From the NCBI GenBank assembly GCA_963775465.1, contig CAVZIW010000004.1, positions 96,001 to 160,000 of the forward strand: DNA of 64,000 nucleotides, in the 5' to 3' direction. Origin of the DNA: Candidatus Bathyarchaeota archaeon. GTDB lineage: Archaea; Thermoproteota; Bathyarchaeia; Bathyarchaeales; Bathycorpusculaceae. A program made the translations under genes and the position numbers. The notes beneath the pieces are model-generated. The model made no database searches. It had not been told where the DNA came from and was given only the letters and a program-made list of their open reading frames with translations. Positions within the stretch are counted from its first letter, which is position 1. Each line of letters starts with the position of its first letter. This document shows, piece after piece, positions 3,323 through 35,361 of the stretch.

Positions 3323-3859
3323 ACAAACTTTGAAAACCAATCTTACATTAATTACGGCATAGGATGTGCAAAATTTAGTTTTATTTTTGCGTTTTTTGTT
3401 CATCTGCCAGAACAACAACACTTTGAAAATTATTGTTGTTATTCTACCAATCTTCAATGCACAAGAAGGCAGCTTTAGGCGTATTGCTGAAAAATTCTTT
3501 CCCAGGATAACACGCAATCGTTATGTGTGGACAGCTTTGTTTTGGGCAGATTAAAAGGACGAAGGATTTCAACTCTGTAGTTGTGTTTCCTAATCTTTAA
3601 TCGATAAGAACTCTGATTGTCTTGGATGCCCATATCTTGAATTTTCTGTTGTAAGTTTCTTTAGAAGCGATTGTTTTGTTACCAAAGCCTGACAGTTTAA
3701 CAGGCTTGATGAAGATGAAAAAGCGATAACTGGATTAAAAATTACACTCAGCTCTATATGATAAGTGAGAAGTGCATTTTGGCAAGAACCTGTTCTTAAC
3801 ATTTAATAGCAAAATATCAAAAAACATAATTGACAGTTACGACAACGAATATTGTCAAT

Positions 3860-5122
3860 ATGACAACCCCAAAGAGGTTTAAAGTAACAACTCAAGACGC
3901 ATACAACTATGCCGCCAGCAAGTTTTTTGCAGATCAACAGCTTGCAATGGTGCTAAAACTGAACGGGCAACTTGAAGAAGATTTGTTTGAACAAGCGATT
4001 CATTTAACCATGGATCTGGAGCCTGTTTTAGGGTGTCAATTTGTTGAAAACGGTGATAAACCCTTTTGGGAACGCAGAAACGATTTAGAAAATATTAAAC
4101 TGTCAGACGTAGTTAAAGCTGACCCGCCTGAGGATGCGCTTGAAACTTTTGTTAGTTCGCCTATTCGCGCAGATTTAGATCCCCTTGTTAGAGCAAGGAT
4201 TTTTCGGGGAAGGAATACAGATACACTTTGCATCAAAATAAACCATTCAGTCTGCGATGGGGGAGGCCTCAAAGAATATGTTTTCATGCTTTCCAATATC
4301 TATAACACTTTAGTCAGCGGCAAAGAATGTATTGTTTTGCCTAATTTAAGCAGAAGAGATCAGAGTCAAATACCCCAGCTAGCTAAAGATACTAAAAGCC
4401 TCGCTGTGAAAGGGTTTCCTCAACCAACTTGGACTTTATTACAAAAAGCTGGAACTGAACCCCTGCATTGCTTCAGGGTTATTCCGAAACCAAGGTTTGA
4501 AGTAATAAAGAAATATGCTCAAAATAAAAGTACCTCGGTAAACGATGTGCTTCTTGCTGCTCTATTTCGAGCTTTTTTTGTTTTAAACAACACACCAGCA
4601 GATTCTCCGATGATAATGCAGGTTTCTATAGACCTAAGAAGATACCTTTCAAAGAAGAAAGCGGAGGTAATATGCAACCTTTCGGGAGCATTATATGTCG
4701 CTTTGGAGAGGAAAGGCGGCGAAGAATTTGACGGAACATTAACCAGAGTTAGTGCAGCAATGAATAGACTTAAAGAAAATAATCCTGGCCTAGAGAGTGC
4801 CGCAGGTTTAGAATATTTGGCAAGTCAAGGTTATATTGGCTTAGTGAAATATTTGGAAGAAGCATCCGCAATGGGTAGAAAATTTAATGTTACTTTTCCG
4901 TTACTTTCAAATTTTGGTGTTCTTAGTCTTTACGGCTTTGGTGAACTAATAGTAATAAATGAATTCATTTCTAGCCCGATTATGTATCCTCCTGGATTCA
5001 TGCTGGGAGTGAGCACTTTCAATGACGAAATGACGTTTTCAATTGGATATTGCGGAAAAGAAAATAGGCGACAAATAAACAGATTTCTTGAAATCTACGT
5101 CGCTGAGTTACCCTTAACGTAA
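3860..5122 (+). CDS. Stand-alone condensation-domain / CoA-dependent acyltransferase
   Basis: NHSVCDGGG (HxxxDG) motif, SVNDVLLAA, IDLRRYL, LSNFG; ATG at 3860 preferred over TTG at 3830. Confidence 0.8.
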   Translation: MTTPKRFKVTTQDAYNYAASKFFADQQLAMVLKLNGQLEEDLFEQAIHLTMDLEPVLGCQFVENGDKPFWERRNDLENIKLSDVVKADPPEDALETFVSSPIRADLDPLVRARIFRGRNTDTLCIKINHSVCDGGGLKEYVFMLSNIYNTLVSGKECIVLPNLSRRDQSQIPQLAKDTKSLAVKGFPQPTWTLLQKAGTEPLHCFRVIPKPRFEVIKKYAQNKSTSVNDVLLAALFRAFFVLNNTPADSPMIMQVSIDLRRYLSKKKAEVICNLSGALYVALERKGGEEFDGTLTRVSAAMNRLKENNPGLESAAGLEYLASQGYIGLVKYLEEASAMGRKFNVTFPLLSNFGVLSLYGFGELIVINEFISSPIMYPPGFMLGVSTFNDEMTFSIGYCGKENRRQINRFLEIYVAELPLT

Positions 5123-10343: not shown

Positions 10344-11444
10344 ATGATTTCAATTAATCTCCCAAAGATAGGCGAAGAAGAAATTCAGGCAGTCGTAGAA
10401 GTAATGAAAAGCGGAATATTAACAACCTCATTAGGTGCTGGACCAAAAGTAACCGAGTTCGAGAAGAAATATGCAGAGTTTGCTGGAGTTAAACATGCTA
10501 TAGCGGTTAACACGGGAACCGCTGCTCTACATGCCACATTGTTGGCTGTTGGAATCAAAGCAGGTGACGAAGTAATCTTGCCGAGTTTCACGTTCGTAGC
10601 AACCGCGGAAGCAGTTGTACTCGCTGGTGGAAGACCAGTCTTTGCCGACATCGACTCCGAAACCTACACCCTATCCCCACAAGCCATTGAAAAGGCAGTA
10701 ACCAAAAAAACGAAAGCGATAATCCCAGTAGACATCTATGGACTGCCAGCTGATATGAAACCGATAATGGAAATCGCCTCAAAAAACAACCTTTCAGTGG
10801 TTGAAGATTGTGCACAGTCACATGGAGCAACTTGCGAAGGTAAACCAGCGGGTGCCCTTGCGGATTTAGCTTGCTGGAGCCTTTATGCAGCTAAGAATAT
10901 CGGCACCGGCGAAGGGGGAGTCGTAACAACCGATAACGATCAACTTGCTGAGAAAGTCAAGATGGTAAGAACTCATGGAGAAAAAGCAAAATACCAATCA
11001 CTCATGTTGGGCACGAATTATCGCATGACTGAAATTCAAGCCGCAATAGGGGTTATACAGCTTAGAAGACTACCAGAATTCCTTGCAAAACGTTCCCAAA
11101 ATGCCCAGAGCCTAACTATGAAGTTGGAGAGCAACGGAATAGAACTACCTCCAAAACCAAAGAACAGAACACCAAGCTGGTACCTCTATACCATCAGAAT
11201 AAAAGATGCAACAAAAGAAAAAAGGGACGAAATCATAAGTAAAATGCACAAGAAAGGAATAGGAGCCGACGCCTATTATCCAACGCCAATTAACCAAATG
11301 CCATACTATAAAGAAAACTTCGGAACCTTCGTCTTACCAGAAACCGAAAAAGCCGCAAAACAAGTAATCTCCCTACCAATTCACCCGGGCGTGACAGAAG
11401 AGCAAATAGATTTGATAGCTCAAACATTTTTAGCAATTCTGTAA
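10344..11444 (+). CDS. DegT/DnrJ/EryC1/StrS sugar aminotransferase
   Basis: NTGTAALH, TFVATAEAV, EDCAQSHG and SLYAAKNIGTGEGG PLP-lysine motif. Confidence 0.92.
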   Translation: MISINLPKIGEEEIQAVVEVMKSGILTTSLGAGPKVTEFEKKYAEFAGVKHAIAVNTGTAALHATLLAVGIKAGDEVILPSFTFVATAEAVVLAGGRPVFADIDSETYTLSPQAIEKAVTKKTKAIIPVDIYGLPADMKPIMEIASKNNLSVVEDCAQSHGATCEGKPAGALADLACWSLYAAKNIGTGEGGVVTTDNDQLAEKVKMVRTHGEKAKYQSLMLGTNYRMTEIQAAIGVIQLRRLPEFLAKRSQNAQSLTMKLESNGIELPPKPKNRTPSWYLYTIRIKDATKEKRDEIISKMHKKGIGADAYYPTPINQMPYYKENFGTFVLPETEKAAKQVISLPIHPGVTEEQIDLIAQTFLAIL

Positions 11445-11509: not shown

Positions 11510-12382
11510 ATGCAGAGTGTACTAGTTGTTGGTTTGGGAGAAATCGGAAGTACAGTATTTACTGTCCTAAAACAGAGCCAAAAATTCAGGCTCTACGGCA
11601 TAGATTTCGATAGAAAGAAAATGCTAAAATGTGAAACAACCGAGCCACCAAACAACTCAAAAATCGATGTTTTGCAAGTTTGCATTCCTGCCGAAGACAA
11701 GACCAAATTAATTCAAATCACTAAAAGTTACATAAAAAAGTACCAACCTAAAGTGACCATCATAAACAGCACCGTTCCTATTGGCACAACCATGGAATTG
11801 TATAAGCAATGTGGCGGATTAGTAGCTCATTCTCCATGCCGAGGCGTGCACAAGAATAAGGAGTACATGGTAAAAGAGTTCAGACGCTGGACAAAATATG
11901 TCGGAGGCGCCACGCCTAAAGCAGGAAAAGCAGCAGAAAAACATTTCAAGTCATCAGGATTAAAAACTAAACAACTTGCCAACTGCACAGACACTGAATT
12001 TGCTAAACTATTTGAAACAACATACAGAACATGGATGATTGTTTTCTTCCAAAAAATGCAGCGTCTCGCAAGAAGATATAACAAAGCAAATCCGGATTTG
12101 AATATTGATTTTGACGAAACGGTCGACTTCATCGAAGATACTCACCGCCAAAGACACGACAGGCCCGTCATGTTCCCAGATGCAATCGGCGGCCACTGCC
12201 TGCTTCCAAATTCAAAACTGATGCTGAGCGAGTATGAACCTGAAATGCTAAATCTCATAATAGAAAGCAATAACCGAATGATTGTGGAAAAAAAAGACGC
12301 TAAAGTTTCAGCACAAGTCAAGAAAGTTGCCAACCGAGTCGCTAGTTTTGAAAAGGAACAGGACAATCAGGTCATGCATTGA
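11510..12382 (+). CDS. Short UDP-glucose/GDP-mannose dehydrogenase family protein
   Basis: VGLGEIG Rossmann motif, STVPIGTT, EFAKLFETTYR and GGHCL catalytic Cys; only 290 aa. Confidence 0.78.
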   Translation: MQSVLVVGLGEIGSTVFTVLKQSQKFRLYGIDFDRKKMLKCETTEPPNNSKIDVLQVCIPAEDKTKLIQITKSYIKKYQPKVTIINSTVPIGTTMELYKQCGGLVAHSPCRGVHKNKEYMVKEFRRWTKYVGGATPKAGKAAEKHFKSSGLKTKQLANCTDTEFAKLFETTYRTWMIVFFQKMQRLARRYNKANPDLNIDFDETVDFIEDTHRQRHDRPVMFPDAIGGHCLLPNSKLMLSEYEPEMLNLIIESNNRMIVEKKDAKVSAQVKKVANRVASFEKEQDNQVMH

Positions 12383-12532: not shown

Positions 12533-13480
12533 TTAGTGTATAAGTCCATTATCTCTGAGCAAAACACTCAAACCCTCAGTTAGTAAAAACTGTGGCTCAT
12601 AGCAAAGAAGCTTTTTTGCCTTGGAAATATCCGCGTAGCTGTCCTTGATGTCGCCAGGACGTGTTTTTTCATAAATGATTTCCACGTCCTCACCACTTAA
12701 CTCTAAAAGAGTCCTAGCTAGCTTATTTATAGAAGTAGGCTTGCCTGATCCAACGTTAAAGACTTGACCGACAGCATCCTCAAGTTTCATAGCAGCTAAA
12801 ACTGCAGATGCAATATCATTTACGTTAACAAAGTCACGTGTCTGCAATCCGTCGCCATAGATGACCAAGGGCTCTTTGCGGCTTATATGATCAATGTAAC
12901 GTGTTATTACCCCACTGTAATCATTCATGCCTTGTCTTGGACCGTAAACGTTAAAGAAACGCAAAATAACAGAAGACAAAAGACCACGTTCCTGGAACCC
13001 TGTGCAGTAGCGTTCACCGATGAGTTTGGATTCAGCGTAAGGAGAAATCGGATTGGGAGGTGTATCTTCACTTACTGGGAGAGTGGCTGGGTCTCCGCAT
13101 ACTGCACAACTTGAAATAAAAACAAACCGATTAACCTGCGCCTCAACGCATGACTCCAATAAGTTCAAGGTTCCAAGAAGGTTAACATCGAAGGTTAATT
13201 TTGGATTTTTAATTGAAATAGGCACACTGATCATTGCCGCAAAATGAAGAACTGCATTAATGTCACGAAGGTTCTCGCGGACAAATGAAACGTCACGAAT
13301 GTCACCCTTGGCGAAAGTTACTTTTCCAGAATCTAAATGTGCGCGTATGTTCTTTATCTTGCCAGAGGATAAATCATCGATTACTCTAACGGAGTAGCCC
13401 TCTTTGACCAAGCGGTCAACAACATGGCTACCGATAAAGCCAGCACCACCAGTAACCAGAATCTTCATTTTATCAGGCAT
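12533..13480 (-). CDS. NAD-dependent sugar epimerase/dehydratase (extended SDR, UDP-glucose 4-epimerase-like)
   Basis: TGGAGFIGSH, SPYAESK (YxxxK), RFFNVYGPRQ, GDGLQTRDF. Confidence 0.92.
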   Translation of the reverse strand: MPDKMKILVTGGAGFIGSHVVDRLVKEGYSVRVIDDLSSGKIKNIRAHLDSGKVTFAKGDIRDVSFVRENLRDINAVLHFAAMISVPISIKNPKLTFDVNLLGTLNLLESCVEAQVNRFVFISSCAVCGDPATLPVSEDTPPNPISPYAESKLIGERYCTGFQERGLLSSVILRFFNVYGPRQGMNDYSGVITRYIDHISRKEPLVIYGDGLQTRDFVNVNDIASAVLAAMKLEDAVGQVFNVGSGKPTSINKLARTLLELSGEDVEIIYEKTRPGDIKDSYADISKAKKLLCYEPQFLLTEGLSVLLRDNGLIH

Positions 13481-13864
13481 AACATATTACTCAACTTAGT
13501 AATTTATTAAACAATTTGTTAGCTACACCGCAACTCAGAAAACACAAACAGCCTCTTTAACAAAATAATCACCCGCTTAGCAATTATTCCAACTATCATG
13601 CCTGAAAAACAAAGATATAATGATGACTACAACAGAATACCCTTACTCAGCAAGTAGATAACCAAAGAGAATAACTAACCTGTTATAGCGGCATACCCTA
13701 AAAGAGATAGCTCTTTGGAAAGATAGTTTGCTGCGATGTTTGGCAGATGCAATGTTGTTCTCCATCCCGAATTTGGCTCATCTATGGTAAGACAGATAGT
13801 ATATTTTCTCCAAACCAGCTAAAAAACAAATCCAAGATTACTAAAGCAACCATCCTCACATTTT

Positions 13865-14998
13865 CTAATTGCTTGGCTGTCCCTGAAGTGCTGAAGTAGA
13901 TCTTATTTCATGCTTAATTAACAAAACTATTTTTTCAACTTCCGAAACTTTTAGATCGGGATACAAAGGAAGACACAAAACCCTGTCAGCTATCGAATCT
14001 GCATTCACTAAATGATATTTTTCCACTAAGTTCAATCCGGCACCTTTGAAGTAATCAAAATTAACTGTGAGAGGATAGAAATATTTTCTTGACTTGACAC
14101 CATTCCTAAGAAGCATAAGATATATTGAATCTCTTTCCTTCTTTGAACTAAAAAGCACAGGCATATAACTGTAATTACATTTAGAAGCTACAATCTTCTG
14201 GAATTTTATACCCTCGAAACCAGATAGCAACTCAAAATAACGATCATAAAGTTTACCTCTAAGATTAATCGCGTTATCAATATTTTCAAGGTTACAAAGT
14301 CCCATAGAAGCTTGAAACTCATTCATCTTTCCATTAACACCAGCAAACGCAACTTCCTCTTCAGACTTAATTCCATGATTTCTAGCAAGCTTTAATTTCT
14401 CAGCAATTTCATCATCTTTAGCAATAGCCGCACCGCCCTCTATTGTATTAAACACTTTAGTAGCATGAAAACTCAATGTTGACCCATCACCAAAGTCAGT
14501 TATTGGTCGATTCTTATACTCCACACCAAAAGCATGAGCCGCATCAAAAATAAGTTTCAAGCCATGCTCCTCTGCAACTTCTTGAAGTTCCTCTACATAG
14601 CAAGGGTTTCCATAAACATGCACAGCAAGAATAGCACTCGTCTTATCAGTAATTTTTCTACGCACGTCAAATGGGTCGACATTATAGGTTTCAGGATCAA
14701 TATCAGCAAAGACAGGAGATAAACCAGCCCATAACAACACATTTGTAGTTGCTGCAAACGTAAAAGGAGTAGTAATAACCTCTCCTTGGATATCAAGCAC
14801 CTTTAGCATGATTTGAAGAGATAAAGTGCCATTGGACATAAGCACAAGATTTTTGACTTTAAGATATTCTTCCAGTCTCTTTTCTAGTAACTGCACAAAT
14901 TTCCCATCATTAGTTAACCACCGATTAGCCCATATCGTCTTCAAGTATTCAATGTATTTTTCAATTTGAGGAAGGTCAGCTTTCGTTACTGTAATCAT
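13865..14998 (-). CDS. VioA-like dTDP-4-amino-4,6-dideoxyglucose aminotransferase (DegT family)
   Basis: WLTNDG, VHVYGNPC, DAAHAFG, SFHATKVFNTIEGGA and NGKMNEFQA motifs typical of the VioA subgroup. Confidence 0.82.
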   Translation of the reverse strand: MITVTKADLPQIEKYIEYLKTIWANRWLTNDGKFVQLLEKRLEEYLKVKNLVLMSNGTLSLQIMLKVLDIQGEVITTPFTFAATTNVLLWAGLSPVFADIDPETYNVDPFDVRRKITDKTSAILAVHVYGNPCYVEELQEVAEEHGLKLIFDAAHAFGVEYKNRPITDFGDGSTLSFHATKVFNTIEGGAAIAKDDEIAEKLKLARNHGIKSEEEVAFAGVNGKMNEFQASMGLCNLENIDNAINLRGKLYDRYFELLSGFEGIKFQKIVASKCNYSYMPVLFSSKKERDSIYLMLLRNGVKSRKYFYPLTVNFDYFKGAGLNLVEKYHLVNADSIADRVLCLPLYPDLKVSEVEKIVLLIKHEIRSTSALQGQPSN

Positions 14999-15045
14999 TA
15001 TTTACTACCTATCTTTAGCTTTACTTTAATCACTAAGTGTTTATT

Positions 15046-15936
15046 TTAATGATTTCCCCAATCATAGAAACCTTTCCCACACTTACGTCCCAAGTGACCA
15101 CGATTAACCATTTTTACTAAAAGTGGAGAGGGCGAAAACTTCTCACCAAGTTCTTTGTTTAACACTTCACAAATCGATAACACAGTATCAGCACCTATAT
15201 AATCAACCAAAGCCAGAGGCCCCATAGGCCAATTCAACCCCAACTTAACAGCTTTATCAATGTCCTCCACACTTGCCACACCTTCATCTACTAAAGAAAC
15301 AGCCTCATTAAGAGCTAAAATTAGTAAACGATTAACTATAAAACCGGGTGTATCTTTATTTAAAACCACGGGGTCTTTACCCATCTGCTTTGATGCTTCA
15401 CGTATCTCATTGATTGTACTATCAGAGGTTTGTTGCCCAGGGATTACTTCGACAAGTTTGATTATTTGAGGGGGATTAAAAAAATGCATTCCTACAAAAT
15501 TTTCAGGCCTGATTGTGACTAAAGCCAATTCTGAAATCATTATCGAAGATGTGTTAGATGCAATTAAAGCAGAAGACTTGGCGATTTTTTCAATATTCTT
15601 TATCAAAGTTTTCTTAGCTACAATATTTTCTGGAATAGCCTCAATAATTAGATCAGCATTTTCAACTGCTTCTTTGAGTGAAATCACGGGATGAATTTTA
15701 CAATAAAAATGCTCAAACTGCGCTTGCGTAATCTCTTTTTTTTTCAATCTCCTATTCAAATCATTTTTTATCCTAGTCATTCCTTTATCGAGAAATTCCT
15801 CGTTGACATCCTGCAAATAAACATCACAGCTAATATTTTGGGCCACAAGCTGGGCAATACCGATCCCCATCAAACCAGCCCCAATAATAGCCAATTTTTT
15901 TATTTCCAAAACATGCCTCCTAGCTGGTTTAAGCAA
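15046..15936 (-). CDS. 3-hydroxybutyryl/3-hydroxyacyl-CoA dehydrogenase
   Basis: [54 protein letters not shown]. Confidence 0.93.
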
Positions 15937-15952
15937 TTAAAGACCTTAAAGC

Positions 15953-16609
15953 TTACCACGGTTTCTCATCTATACTTTTATAAATTTTCTTCACAGAAGC
16001 GGGAACTCCTGCTACTAACGCCATCTCAGGAACATCCTTGGTAACTACTGCCCCTGCAGCTATTACCGCTCCATCCCCAACCTTTACGCGTTCAATTACA
16101 GTTGCGTTAGTACCAACATAAACTTGCTCACCCAATTGCGCGAACCCCATGAGCTCTGCGCCAGGAGAAATTGTTGTAAAACTGCCTATGACAACATCAT
16201 GACCAATATGGGCTCCGAGATTAGCAATAACATGTTGACCTATCTGAATTTGGCAGGTCATAATAACCCCCGCGGCAAAAATTGAACCAGCACCAATATC
16301 AACCCATCTTGATCGAACAACGTTTGGATGAATTATAGTATCAAAAGTAAATCCATCATTTTCAAGTTTTCTAATTAGCCGCTTGCGTTTAGTTGAGCCA
16401 ATAGCAGCCACTAAAAAAACATCGTTATAATCCAAATTTATTATGGTGGATATATCTCGCACCACCTTACCGTTCAGCAATTGACCAGTCTTTCTACAAT
16501 TTTCTTCAAAAAAACATACAACATCAGTTTCCCTCCCCGAATCGATAAAAATATTCAAGGTTTCCCTTGCAAACCCCCCTGCACCAAGTATACACACTTT
16601 TTTACCCAC
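15953..16609 (-). CDS. Sugar N/O-acyltransferase, NeuD/PglD/AntD-type hexapeptide (LbH) family
   Basis: N-terminal ILGAGGFARE domain, IGHD catalytic His, AGAVVTKDVP...AGVPA. Confidence 0.88.
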   Translation of the reverse strand: MGKKVCILGAGGFARETLNIFIDSGRETDVVCFFEENCRKTGQLLNGKVVRDISTIINLDYNDVFLVAAIGSTKRKRLIRKLENDGFTFDTIIHPNVVRSRWVDIGAGSIFAAGVIMTCQIQIGQHVIANLGAHIGHDVVIGSFTTISPGAELMGFAQLGEQVYVGTNATVIERVKVGDGAVIAAGAVVTKDVPEMALVAGVPASVKKIYKSIDEKPW

Positions 16610-16775
16610 TTAACATCCACAAAGTCTGAAGAAGGTACGCACCTTAATATTAACATTTTTTAAGCCTACCCATATTAACAAAAAAAATCTAAAAATGAAA
16701 TCCACCAGTCACTGAAGGTAAAAATAAACTACAAATTTTAACTTAAAAGGAAAATACCCTGGGAAAATAAAATAA

Positions 16776-17861
16776 TTATGGGTATGTATAGAACTTTTTA
16801 TAAAAAAGCTCTAAATTTCTAATATAAGAATTGTGACTATACATTTCATCACATAACTGGAATTGCTTAAGCTGGTAGGCACTATAATTATTTTCAATAT
16901 CAAAATCTATGATGTCATTACAAATATTTTTAATCAGAGCATCATAACTTGGATATACCGTTCGAAGAGACTCAAACTTCTTCGGAAAGAATTCAGGTCG
17001 ATATACGCTAAAACTTATAGCTCCGCTGAATATAGATTCGACAAAATACCCATCTAAACCTTCTCCAAAAGTTAAGGCCCATTTCGCCTTAGCAATTACC
17101 TGTTTATATCGTTCATATGTTAGGTTTTGTATTACTTGTATCTGCAATTTAGGAAACATATTGCGCAATGCATCAATAACCTCAGTTCGTCGAAAGTGAG
17201 GATCAGGCGAAAGAATCATTAGATCGTCTTTGTCTGCAAATTGACGATAACAGTATTTATCAGAACTAACATAAGTTGATAGTTTATGCAAAGGAAACCC
17301 TAGCTCCTTTCTAAGCTGCATCGTACAATATTTTTCATGAGCAGTAGTCGCCGTTAATTTCCCGATGCTGCCTAAACGATTAAGAACTCTTTTAGAGGGT
17401 AAATATTCAATATTTTGGAGAAGAATATTAATTGAAAAATGAGGTATTTCTCGAATTTTTTTACGATCAGCGGGAGAAATACTGCATAGGAAGCGAAACG
17501 CAAAATGCTCCGGTATATGTATTAATAAATCGTCTGGACTAAAAAACTTTAAAACATCCGAAAAATTCAGTAATACATTATTGTTTCTAAACTTTGTATA
17601 TCTAAGCAGGGGAGGGTCACCAGGGTATTCGCATAATACAGTCTCAACATTAGCCATAACCGAGAGTTTCCTCGTTTCTTCGTACAATGAACAAATAGAC
17701 AAAATTCCACCATTCACAGTATCTATACCAGGCGACATAAAAATCACCAATTTTTTAACATTATCCACATAGTTATTTTCTAGAAACCATCTCTGTTGCA
17801 ATTTTATTCGAATAAACTTTGGCGAAAACGACAAAAAAATACCTATAGCCATTGAAAACAA
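16776..17861 (-). CDS. Hypothetical protein, probable GT-B-like glycosyltransferase
   Basis: NGGILSI N-terminal motif and FGEGLDGYFVES resembling the GT-B nucleotide-binding motif; lies within sugar cluster; start uncertain. Confidence 0.5.
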   Translation of the reverse strand: MFSMAIGIFLSFSPKFIRIKLQQRWFLENNYVDNVKKLVIFMSPGIDTVNGGILSICSLYEETRKLSVMANVETVLCEYPGDPPLLRYTKFRNNNVLLNFSDVLKFFSPDDLLIHIPEHFAFRFLCSISPADRKKIREIPHFSINILLQNIEYLPSKRVLNRLGSIGKLTATTAHEKYCTMQLRKELGFPLHKLSTYVSSDKYCYRQFADKDDLMILSPDPHFRRTEVIDALRNMFPKLQIQVIQNLTYERYKQVIAKAKWALTFGEGLDGYFVESIFSGAISFSVYRPEFFPKKFESLRTVYPSYDALIKNICNDIIDFDIENNYSAYQLKQFQLCDEMYSHNSYIRNLELFYKKFYTYP

Positions 17862-17917
17862 ATCATAAACGAACTTGCGTAGACTGAAAGGAACATAATG
17901 TCTAAAAAAGTTAAACG

Positions 17918-20806
17918 TTAAAATAATCCCTTTCTCCTTTTCAAAATTAATCTCTGAACACTACTGCTCGTAAGTATGTAGAAAAGTACTACCACAGATG
18001 CAGTCGATATTGTCACTAAAACTCCTTTAGCGAATAAGGTTTCAGGTGTATACTCGACAATTATAGAAAACTGACCAGTCCGATTTACCCAAAAACCATT
18101 CATCATTCCCGAAATCGGTATGCTTGAAAAGATTTTCCCTGCCACACCTGCAGTCCATAGACCGTTATACGGTTCTGAAAACACGAGCATAAAAGGACTT
18201 GAGGAATTAATATTCACCACAAACTTTGTCGGGTTTACTTCAGTATAACTGACAATAAAAGGCAACTTTTGAGCTGAACCAAAAACATCGCCTGATAAGG
18301 TTCCATTTGTAGAAAGTGTCACAACATTTGATTGACGCATTAAATCGTTAAGCTGTTGGGTGCAACTATGTTTAGCCGAAAGTGGTAATAATGAAATAAG
18401 ATTTAAAGGATTAAAACCGTTCTCACTAGTAATGCTAATATCATGTTTTCCAGAACCTAACGAAATATTTCCTAAGCTCAACCATTTGAAACCTTCAAGC
18501 GTATTTGTTTGTGTATTAATTACCCCAACTTGATTTCCATCAATACTCATAGATACATTCCCACCTTGTGGATTTTGTAAGACTCTAAGCCAGCCTTCAT
18601 AGTTATCAGATATAGGTAAGAAGGTTGTAAAATTAAGTGTTGCTTGCTGAGTCTCAGGTATTATGATACCCTTATTTAAATCAAAATCGTACTTGTTGCC
18701 GCCATCAAATTTTTTAAGAACAGCTTGGCTCCAATAATAGTCAGAGTAAGTTTCTTTGCTCCAAGCAGTTATGGGATATGTTTGAGTAAGATAATTAACT
18801 GGTGAAATTGAATAGTTCTGACATAAAGTATCCATTAACAGGTCATCGAAGTTTTTGTTACCATAAAATAATATCGTATTATTTTCTTGCAAATGAAAGA
18901 TAGTATTCAATCGGACAAAATCCATTGGATATTGTTCTAGAAATATCCAAGCATTATTATTTAAGGACACATTTGAATAGTCGCTTAATGTAATTAAAGA
19001 ATCCAAGCCACCTACAACAAATACGGTTCTATTCAAAGCGTACAGAAAACGTGAGTCGCCTGTATTTCTAAAAAGATATAGATTACTTTCATTGAAATTA
19101 CATAACAGATCATTCTGAGCAATTAAATTAGTATAAATTGACTGATATGAAGCCCAATCGTAAGTATCATTGTGAAAAATTACATACCTCACGTTTGCTA
19201 AAGAAAACAGATTACCCATATTCTGAGAACCATTTGAAAGTAACGCATCGTAAACTAAATTACCGAAAACCCCCATATTCGGAGAAGGCACTGTCCCCCA
19301 GCCATATGATAAAATAGGTCTTGATGAGGTAATATATTCTGGCTTGTTAGTAAATTGGTTTGCCCAAATCATACTTGCACTTTCAGGATAAAAAACAGTT
19401 CTAAAATTACCACTCGCCGTATCCAAAAATTTATTCATATTTACGTATTGGCTAGGTAACTGTACTGGAGTTATTGCCCCATTCATATTTCCAGTCATTA
19501 GAGGATAACTTGTTATCCCAACTGAGAGCACAACCAAACATACTAAGGCTAAAGCAAACAATTTTTTTCGTGCCTTACCAAACAGCCATAAACTGGTAGA
19601 TGGTCGTGCAGTTTTAGCGGCTAAATGATTATTAACAAAATATTTTGAGAGCACATAGGAAATGAAAAATCCGCATAAAAAGGCGTAGGCCAAACAAGTT
19701 ATCCCGACAAAATAACCAGGATACTTTAAAATCGTTTCAAATAACGATTGAAGACCAATCGCCTTTGGAAGTACGGATGAAAACCATATGTACAATCCCC
19801 CAAATGGCTCAGAGGTACCTTTAGCAATAAAAATTGAAAGTAATAAAAGCATTGATAGAGATTGTATGGTTTTATCCTTAGACTTTTTCAACAAAGCAAG
19901 AGAAGCTAAAATTGGCACAATAATAGCTGTTATCCAAATAATACTAAAACCACCATCAGGATAAAAGAATGGTTGAGGATAAGAAGTAGCCGAAATAACG
20001 CTGAGTACAGAAGGACTGTTAGAGATTATAGTATTCGTAGATGTTATAGCCCAGTATGCTACAGGCCGGACTTCGATATAAGGCATCAACCAAAAAGAAG
20101 AAATTAACACAGAGAGGAATATCATTAAAATAAAAGCAATAGATACTTTCTTTATGTATGCGAATACTGAATGTTGATTGAAATGGTAAATAACATTCCA
20201 AACTAAAAGAAATACAACAACAATTGAACACATGAACATTGCTCGAGCCTCAGCCATAAAAGGGAACAAAACAGCTAAGACTAATGCATTTCTTAGAGCC
20301 CCCTTAAGGGCCACGCTATTAATCATTTTTTGAGTGAAATGAAAAACAAGAGGTAGAAGCATATATCCCCATAAAAATGAATAGTGAAAGAACTGGGGAA
20401 CAATGCTGGGATTAATCGTGTAAATTAATGACCCAATGGTAGCACCCACGTACAAAGACAGTTGATTATTATCTCTTTTCCTGAGAAATGAATAAATCAC
20501 GCCAAAAGAAATGAAATTTATCAAAAAAAATATAAGAAAATAATATATTTTCTGAGAAATCTCTGTGTTGAAAATAAAAGCTATTGGTGAGTATACAAAA
20601 ACACTCAAGAACATGCTATTATCGCCGCTCAAGGCAGGATTAAAAGTGTGAGCTGAACTTCTAAGCACATTGCTATAATAAGTCCAGATTATATCGATGG
20701 ATTCCATTTGGCCAGGCGTAAACAAAACGCCCCTTAAAATAAACACTGAAAGAGCAATCGATTGAACAAGTGCTACTAAAATTAAAATTATAGTCGTCTT
20801 CTTCAT
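17918..20806 (-). CDS. Large polytopic membrane protein, GT-C (AftD/YfhO-like) with extracellular beta-sandwich/CBM-like domain
   Basis: Multi-TM N-terminal half (YTINP, SSFWLMP, AKGTSEPFG), NVRYVIFHND, YTEVNPTKFVV..LVFSEPY..W and terminal TM. Confidence 0.62.
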   Translation of the reverse strand: MKKTTIILILVALVQSIALSVFILRGVLFTPGQMESIDIIWTYYSNVLRSSAHTFNPALSGDNSMFLSVFVYSPIAFIFNTEISQKIYYFLIFFLINFISFGVIYSFLRKRDNNQLSLYVGATIGSLIYTINPSIVPQFFHYSFLWGYMLLPLVFHFTQKMINSVALKGALRNALVLAVLFPFMAEARAMFMCSIVVVFLLVWNVIYHFNQHSVFAYIKKVSIAFILMIFLSVLISSFWLMPYIEVRPVAYWAITSTNTIISNSPSVLSVISATSYPQPFFYPDGGFSIIWITAIIVPILASLALLKKSKDKTIQSLSMLLLLSIFIAKGTSEPFGGLYIWFSSVLPKAIGLQSLFETILKYPGYFVGITCLAYAFLCGFFISYVLSKYFVNNHLAAKTARPSTSLWLFGKARKKLFALALVCLVVLSVGITSYPLMTGNMNGAITPVQLPSQYVNMNKFLDTASGNFRTVFYPESASMIWANQFTNKPEYITSSRPILSYGWGTVPSPNMGVFGNLVYDALLSNGSQNMGNLFSLANVRYVIFHNDTYDWASYQSIYTNLIAQNDLLCNFNESNLYLFRNTGDSRFLYALNRTVFVVGGLDSLITLSDYSNVSLNNNAWIFLEQYPMDFVRLNTIFHLQENNTILFYGNKNFDDLLMDTLCQNYSISPVNYLTQTYPITAWSKETYSDYYWSQAVLKKFDGGNKYDFDLNKGIIIPETQQATLNFTTFLPISDNYEGWLRVLQNPQGGNVSMSIDGNQVGVINTQTNTLEGFKWLSLGNISLGSGKHDISITSENGFNPLNLISLLPLSAKHSCTQQLNDLMRQSNVVTLSTNGTLSGDVFGSAQKLPFIVSYTEVNPTKFVVNINSSSPFMLVFSEPYNGLWTAGVAGKIFSSIPISGMMNGFWVNRTGQFSIIVEYTPETLFAKGVLVTISTASVVVLFYILTSSSVQRLILKRRKGLF

Positions 20807-21879
20807 CTTGCAATGTTGACTCCCGTTGCACTAGAAAATTGGTCATACAACCGCTGATTATTTCTTAGACTCGCTGGATTAACATTCTTCATAAGAGCGG
20901 TAACAGTATTATCCGGCATTCTACGCACAAAATACTGCACTATCACCCGTTTCTTCCAACTTTGTCTAAAATTACTTAGGTTCCAAATATACGCTTTCAA
21001 TATAGCAAATGTACACTCAGGGTTACCACCGGCAAAATTTGATAACGCCCGAATACTCTCTAGAATAATCAACAAGGGAAAGTATTTCATTAAATTAGAG
21101 AGCGAATAATTTTTAATCAGAGTCAGCATGCGATTTTTACAGTGATGAAAAACAAGTCGACTTCGTTTGCGGGAGGTTGTTCTACTCCTGTGATGATAAA
21201 CAATCGAGCGTGGAGCAATTACAGTTTCATATCCGCCTAACTTCATCTTCCAGGAAAGGTCAACATCCTCATAAGCGAAGAAAAAATCGGAGTCAAAAAG
21301 CGTGACCTTTCCAGGACATACCCTTCTAAGCGCTCGCATCTTAATCGTCACAGCCGCACCGTTGGCGTAAAACACCTCGTCCACCTTATTATATACATTC
21401 TTGCCCTTGACAAATCCCCGCTCAAAACCATAACCGCACTTATCGATGAAAGCTCCAGCGCTTTCAAGAACATCACGATTATACCAAAAAAACAGTTTAC
21501 TCTGAATAATCCCAATTTTTTCATCTGATTCAGCAACTTTTATCGATTCACTCAACCAATCCTTGTCAACTTCGGTGTCATTATTTAACAGAGTAACGTA
21601 GGCACCTTTAGCGTATGTTAAACCAACGTTGTTGCCTTCAGCAAACCCTTTGTTCGCATCATTCTTAACAAAACTTAATCGCCGATCTTTGCCAAACTGA
21701 TTAACAGTCGACTCATAACTTCCATCTGCAGAAGCATTGTCAACAAAAATGACCTCAAAATTGGGGTAGTTTGTATCTAAGACAGATTGAACGCATTTAT
21801 CCACAACACCGGCGCCATTATAATTAAGAATAATAATAGAAACCAAGGGATTAAAGGAGACTTCGTTCAAGCATTTCAC
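20803..21879 (-). CDS. Glycosyltransferase family 2
   Basis: VSIIILNYNG, VDNASADG, GFAEGNN, LLNND, YEDVDL. Confidence 0.92.
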   Translation of the reverse strand: MKCLNEVSFNPLVSIIILNYNGAGVVDKCVQSVLDTNYPNFEVIFVDNASADGSYESTVNQFGKDRRLSFVKNDANKGFAEGNNVGLTYAKGAYVTLLNNDTEVDKDWLSESIKVAESDEKIGIIQSKLFFWYNRDVLESAGAFIDKCGYGFERGFVKGKNVYNKVDEVFYANGAAVTIKMRALRRVCPGKVTLFDSDFFFAYEDVDLSWKMKLGGYETVIAPRSIVYHHRSRTTSRKRSRLVFHHCKNRMLTLIKNYSLSNLMKYFPLLIILESIRALSNFAGGNPECTFAILKAYIWNLSNFRQSWKKRVIVQYFVRRMPDNTVTALMKNVNPASLRNNQRLYDQFSSATGVNIAR

Positions 21880-22817
21880 TTAGATCGGCCAAGATTAGAC
21901 AAATACTCTTTAATGCCCTCTTCAGGGCTTCTTGCGACTATACCCAATTGTTTCTTCATTAAACTAGTTTCAGCTAATGTATAATCGAAGTATTTTTCAG
22001 GTTTTGGAACATAGACGGGCTCAATTTTCTTCCCCAACAACTCATTAATAATAAGCACAACATCGTTGAATTTGAGGTTCCTTCCAGTGCCCACATTAAC
22101 TATTGTATTTGAGATTGATTTCTCTGCGGAACTTACAACCGAATCTACAACATCATCGATGTAAACAAAGTCCCTATTCTGAGTTCCATCTCCAAAGATA
22201 ATTGGGCGCTCATTTTTGAGCATACAATTCAGAAAAATCGTCACCACACTTGCATAATCACCTTTATGTTCCTCGCCAGGACCAAATCCTGCAAAAATTC
22301 TTAAGCCCACGCTTGGAACAAGATCAAAATTCCACAGTGCAATTTTTTCGCAAGTGAGCTTGGTTGTTCCATAGAGATTGGTTGGGTTAGCTAAGCCATG
22401 TTCTGATTGAGGAGCAGGAGCGGTTCCGTAGACACTGCCACTTGACGGATAAACCACCTTTTTTACTCCAGTATTTTTAGCAAATTCAAAAATATTATTC
22501 AAACCACAAATAGTACTACTTAAGGCAAAAACTGGGTCTTTATTGAACAATATTATAGAAGATGGCGCGCCAAAATGGAACACGTAATCAATATCCTGAG
22601 GAAGATTTTCAAACGATTTTCTCTTTCTCACATCAGCCTTGATTATACAAACGGGCATTTTTGATAGTGTTTCGATGGATTTTCCTGTAGAAAAGTTGTC
22701 CATAGCAATCACTTTGGCTTTTAAATAAACAAGTCTTTTCAATAGGTTAATACCAATAAAGCCCGCGGCGCCTGTTATCAGAACCTTTCTATCATTCCAC
22801 TTCATGTTAGACGACAT
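21876..22817 (-). CDS. NAD-dependent epimerase/dehydratase
   Basis: TGAAGFIG, YGTTK, GDGTQNRDFVY. Confidence 0.9.
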   Translation of the reverse strand: MSSNMKWNDRKVLITGAAGFIGINLLKRLVYLKAKVIAMDNFSTGKSIETLSKMPVCIIKADVRKRKSFENLPQDIDYVFHFGAPSSIILFNKDPVFALSSTICGLNNIFEFAKNTGVKKVVYPSSGSVYGTAPAPQSEHGLANPTNLYGTTKLTCEKIALWNFDLVPSVGLRIFAGFGPGEEHKGDYASVVTIFLNCMLKNERPIIFGDGTQNRDFVYIDDVVDSVVSSAEKSISNTIVNVGTGRNLKFNDVVLIINELLGKKIEPVYVPKPEKYFDYTLAETSLMKKQLGIVARSPEEGIKEYLSNLGRSK

Positions 22818-22861: not shown

Positions 22862-24121
22862 TTAAGACTTGCGTTTTTCTAGTATATTATAATATAAGTC
22901 CTCAGTGCATTTTGCCACTTGCCCCCAAGAACGCTCAGCAGCAATACTTCTCGCCGACTTTGATAGCTCCAAATTGAAAGAGTCATCATCAAGCGCCCTC
23001 TCAAGTTTTTGGGATAAATCCGAAATAGATCCAGTTTTAAAAACAGCTGAGGCAGGCAAAATATCACTAAACGACGAGACCTTTGAAGCAATCACAGGTC
23101 TATGGTGACCAACTGTAATGTTCATAGGTCCACCAGTTGAGAAAGAGGCAACATAAGGAAAGACAACAACGTCAGAAGCTGAAATGTAAGTTGATAATTG
23201 GTCATCTGGAATAAAACCGACAAATTTTATTCTTTTATCGCCCGAGATTTCATCCATTATTGTATCCCAGAATTTTTTATAGTTAGGTTCGTTTTTCAAT
23301 CTGGGATGCGCTGCCCCCCCAATTACAAGAACGCAATTTGGATCCTTGATATTCTTAAACGCCTTAACAAGAATATCAATCCCTTTATATTTTGTAATAT
23401 AACCAAAATACAACACAATTTTCTGCATATCAAAACCAAGCTTGCTCTTAGCTATTTCTTGGTTAATTGGTTCACTTTTAGGGATTCCATGAGGGACCAA
23501 AAATATCTTTTTAGGTGAACAGTGATATTGCTCTACTAGGACATTCTTATGCGTGTTATTCATTACAATGATTTTGCTTGAATTATCAGTAATTAATCGC
23601 GTAATTAACAATAAACCCATTTGTGACAACCAAATAGGCATTCCCTGAAGGTTTTCATTTCCTAAACTCCCTAATTCAGGATCCTTAATTTCAACGGGAT
23701 TGACAATACCATGTAAAGTCACTATTGTTTTCAATCTGAGAAATTTTGTAAGAAATATCACTAGAGGGAATAGCGCAGCTGAGAATGCTCGACCGAAAAT
23801 AAAATATTCATGCTGAATATGGACAATTTGCGGTTTATTTTGACAAAGTGTCTTAAAAATTTGAAATGGATATAGAACGCCTTCATTCCAACAATCTACA
23901 ATTCTAATTTTATCAGAAAAACCACGCTTTCCAAATTTTTCGCAACTATTTTTTTGAGATAAAATTGCTAAATGAAAATTGGCGAGATTGAATGACTCAA
24001 ACAGATTTCTTGTATAAGTCGAGACTCCACCGCCATCGGGTGGAGTAGTGGAAACAACGCACACTATGGGGGATATTGTTCCGTTCATTGCCCGTCTCTT
24101 TTGCATATTTCTCATCAACAA
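22862..24121 (-). CDS. Glycosyltransferase family 4 (GT-B)
   Basis: HIQHEY, VPHG, FGYITKYKG, SDVVVFPY. Confidence 0.88.
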   Translation of the reverse strand: MLMRNMQKRRAMNGTISPIVCVVSTTPPDGGGVSTYTRNLFESFNLANFHLAILSQKNSCEKFGKRGFSDKIRIVDCWNEGVLYPFQIFKTLCQNKPQIVHIQHEYFIFGRAFSAALFPLVIFLTKFLRLKTIVTLHGIVNPVEIKDPELGSLGNENLQGMPIWLSQMGLLLITRLITDNSSKIIVMNNTHKNVLVEQYHCSPKKIFLVPHGIPKSEPINQEIAKSKLGFDMQKIVLYFGYITKYKGIDILVKAFKNIKDPNCVLVIGGAAHPRLKNEPNYKKFWDTIMDEISGDKRIKFVGFIPDDQLSTYISASDVVVFPYVASFSTGGPMNITVGHHRPVIASKVSSFSDILPASAVFKTGSISDLSQKLERALDDDSFNLELSKSARSIAAERSWGQVAKCTEDLYYNILEKRKS

Positions 24122-24180: not shown

Positions 24181-24951
24181 TCAACCACGAAAAACAGAAG
24201 AAACTAAATTCTGAATACTATTCTTTTTAAGAACCAGGCCTTCGTACGAATGTGTAATTCGTAGTCTGTAGGCTATTCTAAACAAATCCATAAGCATATA
24301 CCACATTTCCATTGGCTTGAATTTGGCATCCAACTTGATATTCACAGGCATCTCCACCACTTTTAAGCCATAAAGATTCGCGACAGCGAGTAACTCAACG
24401 TCGAAAGCATAACGCTTCACAGCCAATCTGGGAAATATGTCGATGAATGCATACTTCTTCATTGCTTTAAGTCCGGACTGGGTATCTTTAAGTTGTACTC
24501 CTGTAAGAAGGCGAACTAAGCCATTGAAACTTTCACTTAAAATTTTTCTTGACAATGGCACTTCTACTTGTGAATTGATATGTTTTTTAGAAGCTATGAC
24601 AATGTCCCCGTGTTTAAGGGCTTCAAGGTATTTTGAAATCGTTCTCAAGTCGATTTCCATGTCGCCATCCGCAAAAATGACAACACTTCCGGCAGCTTCC
24701 ATGAAACCAGTCTTAACAGCATACCCTTTCCCAAGGTTTCTATCATGACTTACTACTCTAACATGACCATTTTTACTTGCATACTTCGACGCTTTGGCTA
24801 GAGTTTTATCTGCACTTCCATCATTAACAACCAAGATTTCATAACTCAAATTTTTGTCAATAATAACAGCGTCGATCGATCCAAGCGTATCTTCAATAAA
24901 CTCTTCTTCATTGAAGGCTGGAACAACGAATGATAATTCAACTTGGCTCAT
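24181..24951 (-). CDS. GT2, dolichyl-phosphate glycosyltransferase-like
   Basis: VPAFNEE, NDGSAD, NLGKGYAV, DGD, DTQSGLK, AFDVELL. Confidence 0.88.
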   Translation of the reverse strand: MSQVELSFVVPAFNEEEFIEDTLGSIDAVIIDKNLSYEILVVNDGSADKTLAKASKYASKNGHVRVVSHDRNLGKGYAVKTGFMEAAGSVVIFADGDMEIDLRTISKYLEALKHGDIVIASKKHINSQVEVPLSRKILSESFNGLVRLLTGVQLKDTQSGLKAMKKYAFIDIFPRLAVKRYAFDVELLAVANLYGLKVVEMPVNIKLDAKFKPMEMWYMLMDLFRIAYRLRITHSYEGLVLKKNSIQNLVSSVFRG

Positions 24952-25528: not shown

Positions 25529-27046
25529 CTACTGAGATGCGTCATACCCATAGATTGCAATGTTCCCACTGCTATAGACTTCTCGGAACAATGATGGTAA
25601 AGTTGGTTGGTCATACCATCCATGTCCATTTATCCACCAAATAATGAATAATTGTGAGTGCCCTTCTTGAGCTGCCACATTTGCCGCTTGTTCAGGAGCG
25701 TCAAATCCGTAGTTTCTTATCTGATTCTCATTAATTGTTAGCAATGCCCAACCATAAAACACCGTATGAGTTAGCAAAAGTGCGCTGCTATTTTCATTAT
25801 TTTTGAACCATTGCAGCGCATTTACAGTGTCTTTGCAATCGGTTATTGAAATGGTATTTTGGAGCATCGAAGTTGGGATTTGATAGGAGTAACCATTGAA
25901 GGATTCAGGGTTAAAGTATTCGAATGGATGGTTTGGAGTAATAGATATGTAGCCAAAGCTTAGAACCGCTGTCGACAAAACAAGATATAATACTGCAATT
26001 CTGCGCACATTAACCTTGTAGTGTTTCCATTTAATCGCCCTGAGCCTACTTAACGCATCCGTCGCGAAAAAGGCAAGTGGATAAGTAAGCATAAGTACCC
26101 AACGATAAGGACTAACAGATGCTATTGGCAACAACATCAGAATAAAGCTAAAAAAAAGCCAAGAATCAAGATGAAGATTCCTAAGGCGCCATATACCTAT
26201 GAGCGCTAAAGGCAGCATAAACAAGAAACAATACAAAAACAAACCACCTGTACTTATCAACATCGATTGATAGGAAGCAAAGCCAGTCCAACTAGCTAAT
26301 ACCGACCCCACATTTGTTGAGTAATCAAGAAGACCAGCTTGTAACACACCATTCAAATAAACTATGAAAAAATATGAAACCGCAGGCAAAGAAACCGCAA
26401 TCAATTTAATAGAGTTGCCAAAAGCTTTATGATACAAACTATTTACAATTGTAAAAGCAATAACTCCCAACATAAGAACTGACACAAGTTGGTGAGATAA
26501 CGCCACCACTGTCATGGCTAAGGAAAGAACAACACAATTTTTCCATTTCATAACCTTTCTTTCGCTTAGCAGCATTAAGACCAAAAAAAAGAAAACTAAA
26601 CCGAGTTCTTCTCGAAGCTGATCCCAAGAAGCTCTCAAAGCAACGAAGTAAAGGGTCCCTAAAAGAGCCACAAACGCACTTTTGGAAGGCGACCAGTTTA
26701 AGCCCTTTCGTGCATATGTAAATATAGTTAACCCTAACAAACCTAGAAGCAAGGGCGAAATTATCTTAAGGACAAAGACAGGTGACCCGACTACGGCAAC
26801 TACTGACGTGAAAATAATATAGAATAGAGGTGCAGTTTCAAGAAATTTTCCTAAACTTATGCCACCATGCAACAACAACATAGAATTAGGAACATAGAAG
26901 CCAATGGTATCAAACCCAATGATATAGGGTCCTATCAGAATCTCAGGTATAACTCTTATAATTAAAGGCAATAAGAATGCCAAGAGAGGGAAAATGAGCC
27001 GATTTTGGGCAATCCAATCTTTCACTTGTTTACAAACTTTAACCAC
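25529..27046 (-). CDS. Polytopic membrane protein, probable GT-C glycosyltransferase
   Basis: IGFDTIGFY acidic loop after TM1, many TM helices, DTVNALQWF..N C-terminal soluble domain. Confidence 0.58.
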   Translation of the reverse strand: MVKVCKQVKDWIAQNRLIFPLLAFLLPLIIRVIPEILIGPYIIGFDTIGFYVPNSMLLLHGGISLGKFLETAPLFYIIFTSVVAVVGSPVFVLKIISPLLLGLLGLTIFTYARKGLNWSPSKSAFVALLGTLYFVALRASWDQLREELGLVFFFLVLMLLSERKVMKWKNCVVLSLAMTVVALSHQLVSVLMLGVIAFTIVNSLYHKAFGNSIKLIAVSLPAVSYFFIVYLNGVLQAGLLDYSTNVGSVLASWTGFASYQSMLISTGGLFLYCFLFMLPLALIGIWRLRNLHLDSWLFFSFILMLLPIASVSPYRWVLMLTYPLAFFATDALSRLRAIKWKHYKVNVRRIAVLYLVLSTAVLSFGYISITPNHPFEYFNPESFNGYSYQIPTSMLQNTISITDCKDTVNALQWFKNNENSSALLLTHTVFYGWALLTINENQIRNYGFDAPEQAANVAAQEGHSQLFIIWWINGHGWYDQPTLPSLFREVYSSGNIAIYGYDASQ

Positions 27047-34008: not shown

Positions 34009-34118
34009 AAATCTTAAAAATCAAGCACTAGATCTATACGTTTTCAAGGTTTTAACCTTTTTCAAAACAGGAAGAAGATTATAGAAAAAGCAGTTCTGTC
34101 CCTATTTTCATGAGCAGT

Positions 34119-35327: not shown

Positions 35328-35361
35328 ATTCTACACTCCGTCTAACCAAAAACACATTTTA

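Follow-up and report, generated by a model that had tools for sequence, protein, structure and literature searches.

Why should the gene of a catabolic 3-hydroxybutyryl-CoA dehydrogenase lie between two genes of amino-sugar synthesis? The question is raised by a locus of an uncultured archaeon of soil and wetland belonging to the Bathyarchaeia, whose assembled genome (GCA_963775465.1) has 2.42 Mb and is 92% complete. The window, that is, the whole stretch of DNA analysed here, has 64,000 nt and corresponds to positions 96001-160000 of contig 4 (CAVZIW010000004.1). A glycan-synthesis cluster spans about 10.3-28.5 kb of the window (about 18 kb) and includes a triad of co-oriented genes, all on the minus strand. 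They encode a hexapeptide (left-handed beta-helix, LbH) sugar N-acyltransferase of the NeuD/PglB/VioB family (15953-16609, 218 aa), a 3-hydroxybutyryl-CoA dehydrogenase (Hbd; 15046-15936) and a DegT-family pyridoxal-phosphate sugar aminotransferase similar to DesI and VioA (13865-14998, 377 aa). A preliminary description of this DNA had given the same coordinates and orientation, with gaps of 16 nt between acyltransferase and Hbd and of 47 nt between Hbd and aminotransferase, and all of this holds for the longest open reading frames (ORFs). It had also proposed that Hbd was recruited to provide the acyl donor for an N-(3-hydroxybutyryl)-viosamine on glycans of the S-layer or of archaellin. We consider it probable that Hbd supplies 3-hydroxybutyryl-CoA for the N-acylation of the cluster's amino sugar; that this sugar is viosamine specifically is a narrower claim, which we place just below the balance of probability.

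The Hbd protein passes the gathering cut-offs of both domains of its family (PF02737, 200 bits against 22; PF00725, 114 bits against 22.1). Its best solved relative is the Clostridium 3-hydroxybutyryl-CoA dehydrogenase 6aa8, matched over the full length with an E-value of 2.6e-76. The NTSS, HFFNP, LVEV and PGFxVNR stretches align identically or nearly so between both proteins, and from HADH/Hbd structures we take them to contain the catalytic Ser, His, Glu and Asn. Against the NCBIfam 3-hydroxybutyryl-CoA dehydrogenase subfamily PRK05808 it scores 320.7 bits and does not reach the cut-off of 408. By these scores it is a member of the 3-hydroxyacyl-CoA dehydrogenase (3HCDH) family that has not earned the curated subfamily name. 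The longest ORF opens at TTG 15936, and another in-frame TTG, at 15909, lies six bases past an AGGAGG motif. Since this motif precedes it and the alignment of homologues begins there, the true start is probably TTG 15909, resulting in a protein of 287 aa and a spacer of 43 nt to the acyltransferase gene.

The spacers inside the triad are short (16-43 nt and 47 nt) and the flanking ones are long, which suggests that the three genes form a sub-operon. One of the flanking spacers is a non-coding segment of 384 nt (13481-13864) separating the aminotransferase gene from the next gene of the strand; the other is an AT-rich segment of 166 nt (16610-16775) upstream of the acyltransferase gene, with indels in a related strain, and it is possibly an internal promoter of the LbH-Hbd-DegT sub-operon. 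The arrangement is no assembly artefact, since one 27-kb contig from an independent sequencing run covers positions 13500-18000 with no joints and short contigs of another run bridge both gene junctions of the triad. The sites at which the locus is found are wetland or salt marsh. We find it rather likely that, through this sub-operon, the amino sugar receives N-(3-hydroxybutanoyl) instead of N-acetyl.

The usual partners of Hbd are missing in this genome. The preliminary description had stated that no thiolase or crotonase is found near the triad, which is correct: the two thiolases of the genome are encoded on other contigs, one accompanied by DUF35 (contig 8) and the other by HMG-CoA synthase (contig 10), and a search of the entire genome, at its 92% completeness, detected no crotonase. 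A separate catabolic hbd was also sought and none appeared, the Hbd of the triad being the only true 3HCDH gene of the genome. Participation of Hbd in a 3-hydroxypropionate/4-hydroxybutyrate or butyrate pathway was considered and rejected, as no crotonase was found.

We compared the locus with 120 genomes of the same genus, 401 genomes of the class and 80 metagenome loci. Hbd is common in the class, occurring in 259 of the 401 sampled Bathyarchaeia genomes (E <= 1e-40), and rare in the genus, with 4 of its 40 genomes in that draw and with Hbd-family matches in 10 of its 120 species genomes (E <= 1e-30). Crotonase (PF00378) was detected in all 3 genomes of the genus with a classical Hbd (G079, G130 and G087, where Hbd is fused to or located beside crotonase and thiolase) and in none of the 7 in which Hbd is glycan-linked. 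Beyond the genus, the 32 closest Hbd loci were inspected with about 1.5 kb on each side; crotonase adjoins Hbd in 30 of them (the exceptions are L026 and L095), and a DegT or LbH gene is present in none. Wider views of nine of these loci showed Hbd accompanied by genes for a thiolase, an acyl-CoA dehydrogenase, a CoA-transferase or an acyl-CoA ligase.

The order aminotransferase-Hbd-acyltransferase is kept in five genomes, that of the window (G000) and those of four other species (G022, G012, G048 and G103), where the Hbd identities to the window's protein are 96, 65, 65 and 59%. Genes for a short-chain dehydrogenase/reductase (SDR) and for a glycosyltransferase of GT-B fold flank the triad where the contig extends far enough. 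The acyltransferase was found in 7 of the 120 genomes of the genus. A contig scan with the acyltransferase alignment used over-specific patterns and recovered only 5 loci, from the same genus or from genomes already in the comparison.

In two more genomes Hbd is linked to other acyltransferases. The Hbd of G075 (51% identity) abuts, in convergent orientation, the gene of a different hexapeptide transferase of 185 aa, which matched only generic O/N-acetyltransferases among solved structures, and this cluster also contains a polysaccharide deacetylase, two GT4 genes and an FkbM methyltransferase. In G134 (L064 6847-12336), an Hbd-like gene with 38% identity overlaps a 309-aa gene of the Gcn5-related N-acetyltransferase (GNAT) type, with no matches to solved structures by sequence search. 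The neighbours are a GDP-mannose 4,6-dehydratase, an SDR, a 139-aa weakly cupin-like ORF, a DegT gene and an AftD-like glycosyltransferase of the GT-C type, the first four being divergently oriented to the Hbd-like gene. The gene content of this locus is suggestive of an N-hydroxyacyl amino-sugar pathway working with GDP-sugars. The linkage of hbd to genes of this kind is therefore not restricted to the window, being found in four further species with the same triad and in two with other acyltransferases.

To place the gene, a maximum-likelihood tree was built with 45 Hbd sequences (the window's own, 9 from other genomes of the genus and 35 from other genera); L034, L035 and L038-L040, which are second copies with lower scores, were omitted. 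The Hbds of the five triads group together in a single clade (100/98, ultrafast bootstrap/SH-aLRT), whose sister is a crotonase-linked Hbd (95/85) and which is nested in a crotonase-linked clade (99/96). Judged by this topology, the Hbd of the triad descends from crotonase-linked Hbds of related Bathyarchaeia and was captured by a glycan cluster in a genus mostly devoid of Hbd. The Hbd of G075 falls in another clade, on a long branch, and that of G134 is very distant (branch above 2). One capture is established by the tree and more than one is possible; the gene may have been acquired repeatedly, by clusters with a VioB-type LbH transferase, a short hexapeptide transferase and a GNAT.

More distant relatives of the transferase were recovered from metagenomes with a six-sequence alignment, giving 80 loci with identities of 40% or less, with DegT within the flanks at 28 of them. 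Two of the 80 loci, L119 and L121, carry Hbd together with a thiolase, all genes being co-oriented. The gene order is Bac_transf, LbH, thiolase, Hbd and DegT in L119 (3329-8179, GC content 46.5%), and Bac_transf, thiolase, Hbd, LbH and DegT in L121 (1018-5832, GC content 62.9%), where stops and starts overlap and the Hbd has 365 aa with a 92-aa N-terminal extension. The Bac_transf gene suggests a bacterial origin for both loci. Its product is similar to PglC (a phosphoglycosyl transferase) and the LbH protein to PglD, so that the cassettes resemble pglC-pglD-pglE modules. A thiolase beside Hbd in an aminotransferase/acyltransferase operon would be sensible only for the supply of a 3-hydroxybutyryl-CoA donor, and as far as gene content can tell, these two cassettes are the strongest independent support for the acyl-supply mechanism. 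We suggest, with some reserve and at slightly under an even prospect, that amino sugars are N-hydroxybutyrylated by a general, as yet undescribed module, fed by thiolase and Hbd, which diversifies the surface glycans of archaea and bacteria.

The two enzymes encoded on either side of Hbd belong to families acting on sugars. The acyltransferase scores 189.5 bits with the NeuD/PglB/VioB model TIGR03570, above its cut-off of 160.8, and has an N-terminal PglD_N region (30.6 bits) and a C-terminal Hexapep region (59.5 bits). Its closest solved relative is VioB (7txp, E-value of 2.2e-28), followed by PerB, PglB and PglD. His137 of the LbH domain, presumably catalytic by analogy with the work on PglD and PerB, shares its alignment column with the His of VioB and is conserved without exception in the 6 homologues compared. 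The aminotransferase matches PF01041 with 315.9 bits and carries an SFHATK stretch. The top NCBIfam model is DesI (TIGR04427), with 292 bits under a cut-off of 650, and PseC follows with 207 bits; the closest solved relative is also DesI (2po3, E-value of 9.9e-60, 206 bits), the others staying about 45 bits behind, at 161 or less. These scores indicate a DesI-like enzyme that is not an equivalog.

In the mechanism that we propose, a thiolase, needed anyway for the mevalonate pathway, would condense two acetyl-CoA into acetoacetyl-CoA, which Hbd would reduce with NAD(P)H to (S)-3-hydroxybutyryl-CoA, a step that would also pull the unfavourable thiolase reaction forward. The enantiomer expected from a 3HCDH-family Hbd would be (S) and not (R). 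The DesI-like aminotransferase would convert an NDP-4-keto-6-deoxyhexose into a 4-amino sugar, the substrate being most likely dTDP-4-keto-6-deoxyglucose from an RmlB encoded elsewhere and the product viosamine. The VioB-family hexapeptide transferase would then move the hydroxybutyryl group from CoA onto the amine, and the GT-B enzyme and a GT-C membrane protein would build the sugar into a surface glycan.

The same acyl supply could serve another acceptor, such as UDP-2-acetamido-4-amino-2,4,6-trideoxyhexose (the bacillosamine type) or a GDP- or 3-amino sugar, which we regard as fairly unlikely. It would be in line with the PglD_N region of the transferase, with PglD and PglB among its relatives, and with the pgl-like appearance of L119 and L121. 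The SDR-family NDP-sugar epimerase or dehydratase beyond the 384-nt spacer (12533-13480, minus strand, 315 aa, PF01370 with 223 bits) points in the same direction: its copies are 64-89% identical beside the aminotransferase in G022, G012, G103 and G057, and it scores best as GalE- or LegB-like and not as RmlB, although it stays below the cut-offs of both GalE (TIGR01179, 229 bits against 262) and RmlB (160 bits against 365). No RmlA was found above cut-off in the genome, the best score being 258 bits with rmlA_long (below 320), on archaeal GlmU-type enzymes, which speaks against viosamine as well. On the other hand, the aminotransferase is clearly best matched by DesI in both comparisons, VioB is the top match of the transferase, and a true RmlB is encoded on contig 11 (470 bits, above the cut-off of 365). 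The viosamine assignment of the preliminary description is backed by the best matches to DesI and VioB, both under equivalog cut-offs, and is weakened by the failure to find RmlA above cut-off and by the location of RmlB on another contig.

Another possibility, which we judge unlikely, is that the product is ordinary N-acetyl-viosamine, or some other N-acetyl amino sugar, and that hbd is a passenger in a variable slot, with an unrelated function or with none. A number of observations weigh against the supply of a hydroxybutyryl donor and several of them would fit such a passenger. A homologous cluster lacking Hbd is present in G057, with the SDR (64%), DegT (66%), LbH (58%) and GT-B (47%) genes and a GT-C gene, and with 366 non-coding bases at the Hbd slot, so its transferase presumably works without Hbd, perhaps with acetyl-CoA. 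No remnant of Hbd was detected in this spacer or in that of G460 (694 nt) by tblastn with 45 Hbd proteins (best E-value of 0.045). The same slot is occupied by a 229-aa methyltransferase-like ORF in G460, from another genus, and by a GT2 gene in G093, which makes position alone weaker evidence. VioB, the solved protein nearest to the transferase, is assigned by name to an acetyltransferase family, and no specificity signature emerges from the transferases themselves, as only 6 alignment columns (positions 13, 22, 60, 101, 115 and 152) separate the Hbd-linked from the Hbd-less ones and none can be assigned to the acyl pocket. Among the distant LbH loci, Hbd is restricted to the two cited above.

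Signs of degeneration or fast change are also present. In G103, the acyltransferase gene (L059 8107-8765) looks frameshifted, with two high-scoring segment pairs in different frames, and the GT-C gene (L059 4273-6847) is split into ORFs of 544 and 280 aa, either by decay of the cluster or by assembly error. The branches of the triad Hbds are lengthened (0.47 for the stem of G000 and G022), and the pairwise ratio of nonsynonymous to synonymous substitution rates (dN/dS) of Hbd between these two genomes is 0.50, on 10 amino-acid changes only, with 0.10 for the acyltransferase and 0.20 for the aminotransferase. This fast evolution in the lineage of the window could be relaxed constraint. Moreover, the approximately unbiased test did not reject a single clade uniting the Hbd of G075 with those of the triad (p 0.135), so that independent recruitment in G075 is not proven.

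A passenger, however, should decay, and Hbd is intact in five species diverged to about 60% identity, with a dN/dS of 0.17 in the informative pair G012-G048 (0.11 for the acyltransferase). These values and the aligned catalytic stretches indicate that Hbd is intact and under constraint. There is no crotonase partner in any of the seven genomes with a glycan-linked Hbd, and Hbd also pairs with the different acyltransferases of G075 and G134 and, in unrelated operons, with thiolase. The recruitment of Hbd as a source of acyl donor, as proposed in the preliminary description, is therefore favoured by its linkage in other species, by the crotonase-free pattern and by the L119 and L121 cassettes, whereas the G057 cluster without Hbd counts against it. 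Finally, a changed substrate, the Hbd-family enzyme acting on a sugar or on another non-CoA 3-hydroxy acid, is very improbable: L-gulonate and carnitine dehydrogenases do share the 3HCDH fold, the protein stays under the subfamily cut-off, its branch is long after the recruitment and the G134 member is very divergent, but the 55-60% identity of Hbd to crotonase-linked Hbds, the full-length alignment with the Clostridium enzyme and the thiolase right beside Hbd in L119 and L121, sensible only for acetoacetyl-CoA, argue against it.

A candidate transferase for the modified sugar is encoded upstream of the acyltransferase gene (16776-17861, minus strand, 361 aa). The preliminary description had called it an unclassified glycosyltransferase-like gene. 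The protein has no Pfam or NCBIfam match, and its AlphaFold 2 model (pLDDT 88) finds 8xsh as the best Foldseek hit (E-value of 4.7e-10), as well as PimA and BshA, which are GT-B proteins; we therefore consider it, on the predicted structure, a candidate GT-B-fold glycosyltransferase for the modified sugar. The family has at least 795 archaeal homologues with about 50% identity and about 360-390 aa, found in Bathyarchaeia, Thermoplasmata, Methanosarcina and Methanobacterium; neither Pfam nor NCBIfam has a model for it, and its members are annotated as hypothetical everywhere. The gene adjoins the acyltransferase gene in G012, G103, G057 and a second locus of G048. A member of this family was also seen adjoining an AftD-like GT-C membrane protein at every locus viewed.

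The next gene of the minus strand (17918-20806) encodes a multi-pass membrane protein of 962 aa with no Pfam match of its own. It has weak C-terminal similarity (E-value of 6e-12) to a G012 protein matching PF11847 (GT-C_AftD), and its position is taken by AftD-like GT-C proteins in L069, L104, L105 and L064. By position and similarity, it is the equivalent of the AftD-like GT-C glycosyltransferases of related loci, and such a protein suggests that the glycan is assembled outside the membrane. A gene for STT3/AglB is found elsewhere in the genome, on contig 3. The cluster continues on the same strand, according to Pfam/NCBIfam, with a GT2 (20803-21879), an SDR (21876-22817), a GT4 (22862-24121), a second GT2 (24181-24951), a 505-aa protein without family (25529-27046) and a third GT2 (27274-28515).

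At the other end of the cluster, two genes on the plus strand are divergent from the triad. The first encodes a second DegT aminotransferase, which is PseC-like (10344-11444; PF01041 with 416 bits; PseC TIGR03588 with 320 bits, below the cut-off of 423.5). The second is a short ORF of 290 aa similar to NDP-sugar dehydrogenases (11510-12382; TIGR03026 with 55 bits, below cut-off), which matches only parts of the domains of these enzymes, all below cut-off, and has 84% identity in G022; it may be truncated or divergent. In G012 and G103, an ORF of 120-127 aa lies between the aminotransferase and SDR genes (L042 6891-7274 and L059 10947-11309, 86% identical). It has no family match, and neither the window nor its genome yielded a counterpart; for these reasons we dropped it as a part of the module.

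Other features of the window lie outside the cluster. Just beyond its limit, a 430-aa ORF (3830-5122) with a weak match to the condensation domain of non-ribosomal peptide synthetases (E-value of 1.8e-10) adjoins a PAP2 phosphatase. A non-homologous end joining set of bacterial type, uncommon in archaea, is found at 31736-36299, with Ku (33151-34008), a fusion of an ATP-dependent ligase and the LigD phosphoesterase (31736-33154) and the LigD primase-polymerase (35427-36299). Three genes at 55576-58533, LarE-like/NAD-synthase (55576-56412), LarC-like nickel insertion (56421-57668) and LarB-like/AIR-carboxylase (57643-58533), resemble those of the nickel-pincer cofactor.

Bacterial O-antigens, capsules and flagellins commonly bear N-(3-hydroxybutanoyl) amino sugars as antigenic decorations, and most accounts either do not specify the source of the acyl donor or assign it to a carrier-protein route. 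If Hbd has the role proposed here, its presence in a sugar operon, with or without thiolase, would be a simple annotation marker predicting a 3-hydroxybutanoyl decoration, of the less common (S)-configuration, and a catabolic enzyme would have been re-used for cell-surface variation. The literature searched, which omits most subscription journals, contains no 3-hydroxyacyl-CoA dehydrogenase tied to amino-sugar acylation and no hydroxybutyryl sugar in archaea, so an (S)-3-hydroxybutyramido sugar would be, within that literature, a decoration unreported for archaeal glycans. To our knowledge, nothing has been described of the envelope chemistry of the Bathyarchaeia, an abundant and uncultured group, and the present reading would offer a concrete and testable prediction on a residue of a Bathyarchaeia surface glycan. 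The clusters of G000 or G012 and of G057 would constitute a natural pair, with and without Hbd, for the evolution of acyl specificity.

Among known systems, the Thl-Hbd-Crt modules of clostridia and of beta-oxidation, together with the crotonase-linked Hbds of Bathyarchaeia, are the family to which the triad Hbd belongs and from which, on the tree, it descends; the difference is that here no crotonase, acyl-CoA dehydrogenase or CoA-transferase partner was found in the genome searched, and the gene is part of a sugar operon instead. The preliminary description had drawn a comparison with the anthrose operon antABCD of Bacillus anthracis, which encodes an aminotransferase, an N-acyltransferase (AntD), a glycosyltransferase and the crotonase AntA. 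The acyl group of anthrose is 3-hydroxy-3-methylbutyryl, carried on 4-amino-4,6-dideoxyglucose. Both operons include an acyl-CoA-forming enzyme of catabolic type, a crotonase-type hydratase there and, here, a dehydrogenase encoded between the two sugar genes. The comparison holds as an analogy and not as homology, since the list of solved relatives of the window's acyltransferase (the best 60 of 128) does not include AntD, which indicates that the transferases are not close kin.

Other 3-hydroxybutanoyltransferases are FdhC, from Escherichia coli O103 and Salmonella O55, and QdhC, from Acinetobacter and Hafnia (PMC4869667). As the parts of that account dealing with them describe, they also act in surface-polysaccharide clusters and transfer 3-hydroxybutanoyl onto a dTDP-amino-dideoxyhexose, but their acceptors are the 3-amino sugars Fuc3N and Qui3N and the acyl group has the (R)-configuration (PMC4869667). 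The passages on these clusters mention no donor-supply gene (PMC4869667, PMC3726653).

The viosamine island of Pseudomonas syringae pv. tabaci, as far as its published description goes, is the most similar system. It comprises vioA, vioB, vioS, vioR, acp, vioT and vioM, and its product is N-(3-hydroxy-1-oxobutyl)-2-O-methyl-viosamine on flagellin (PMC3927599). VioB has 213 aa, vioS is FabH-like and vioR is FabG-like, and the loss of vioR abolishes the transfer (PMC3927599). The island shares with the archaeal cluster a VioA-type aminotransferase, a VioB-family transferase, in-cluster genes for donor supply and a glycosyltransferase. It differs in its bacterial host and in the donor, which is formed there by a FabH-like, FabG-like and acyl carrier protein (ACP) route and would be formed here by one CoA-dependent Hbd of beta-oxidation type; among the genes of the window's cluster, no FabH-like, FabG-like or ACP gene was found with Pfam/NCBIfam. 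Within the limits of that description, the island is the closest known system, having both core enzymes and the proposed class of product in common with the archaeal cluster, and a different route to the donor. N-(3-hydroxybutanoyl) amino sugars are already known, and what the gene content of the archaeal cluster would add to them is the supply of their donor by a single gene of the CoA route.

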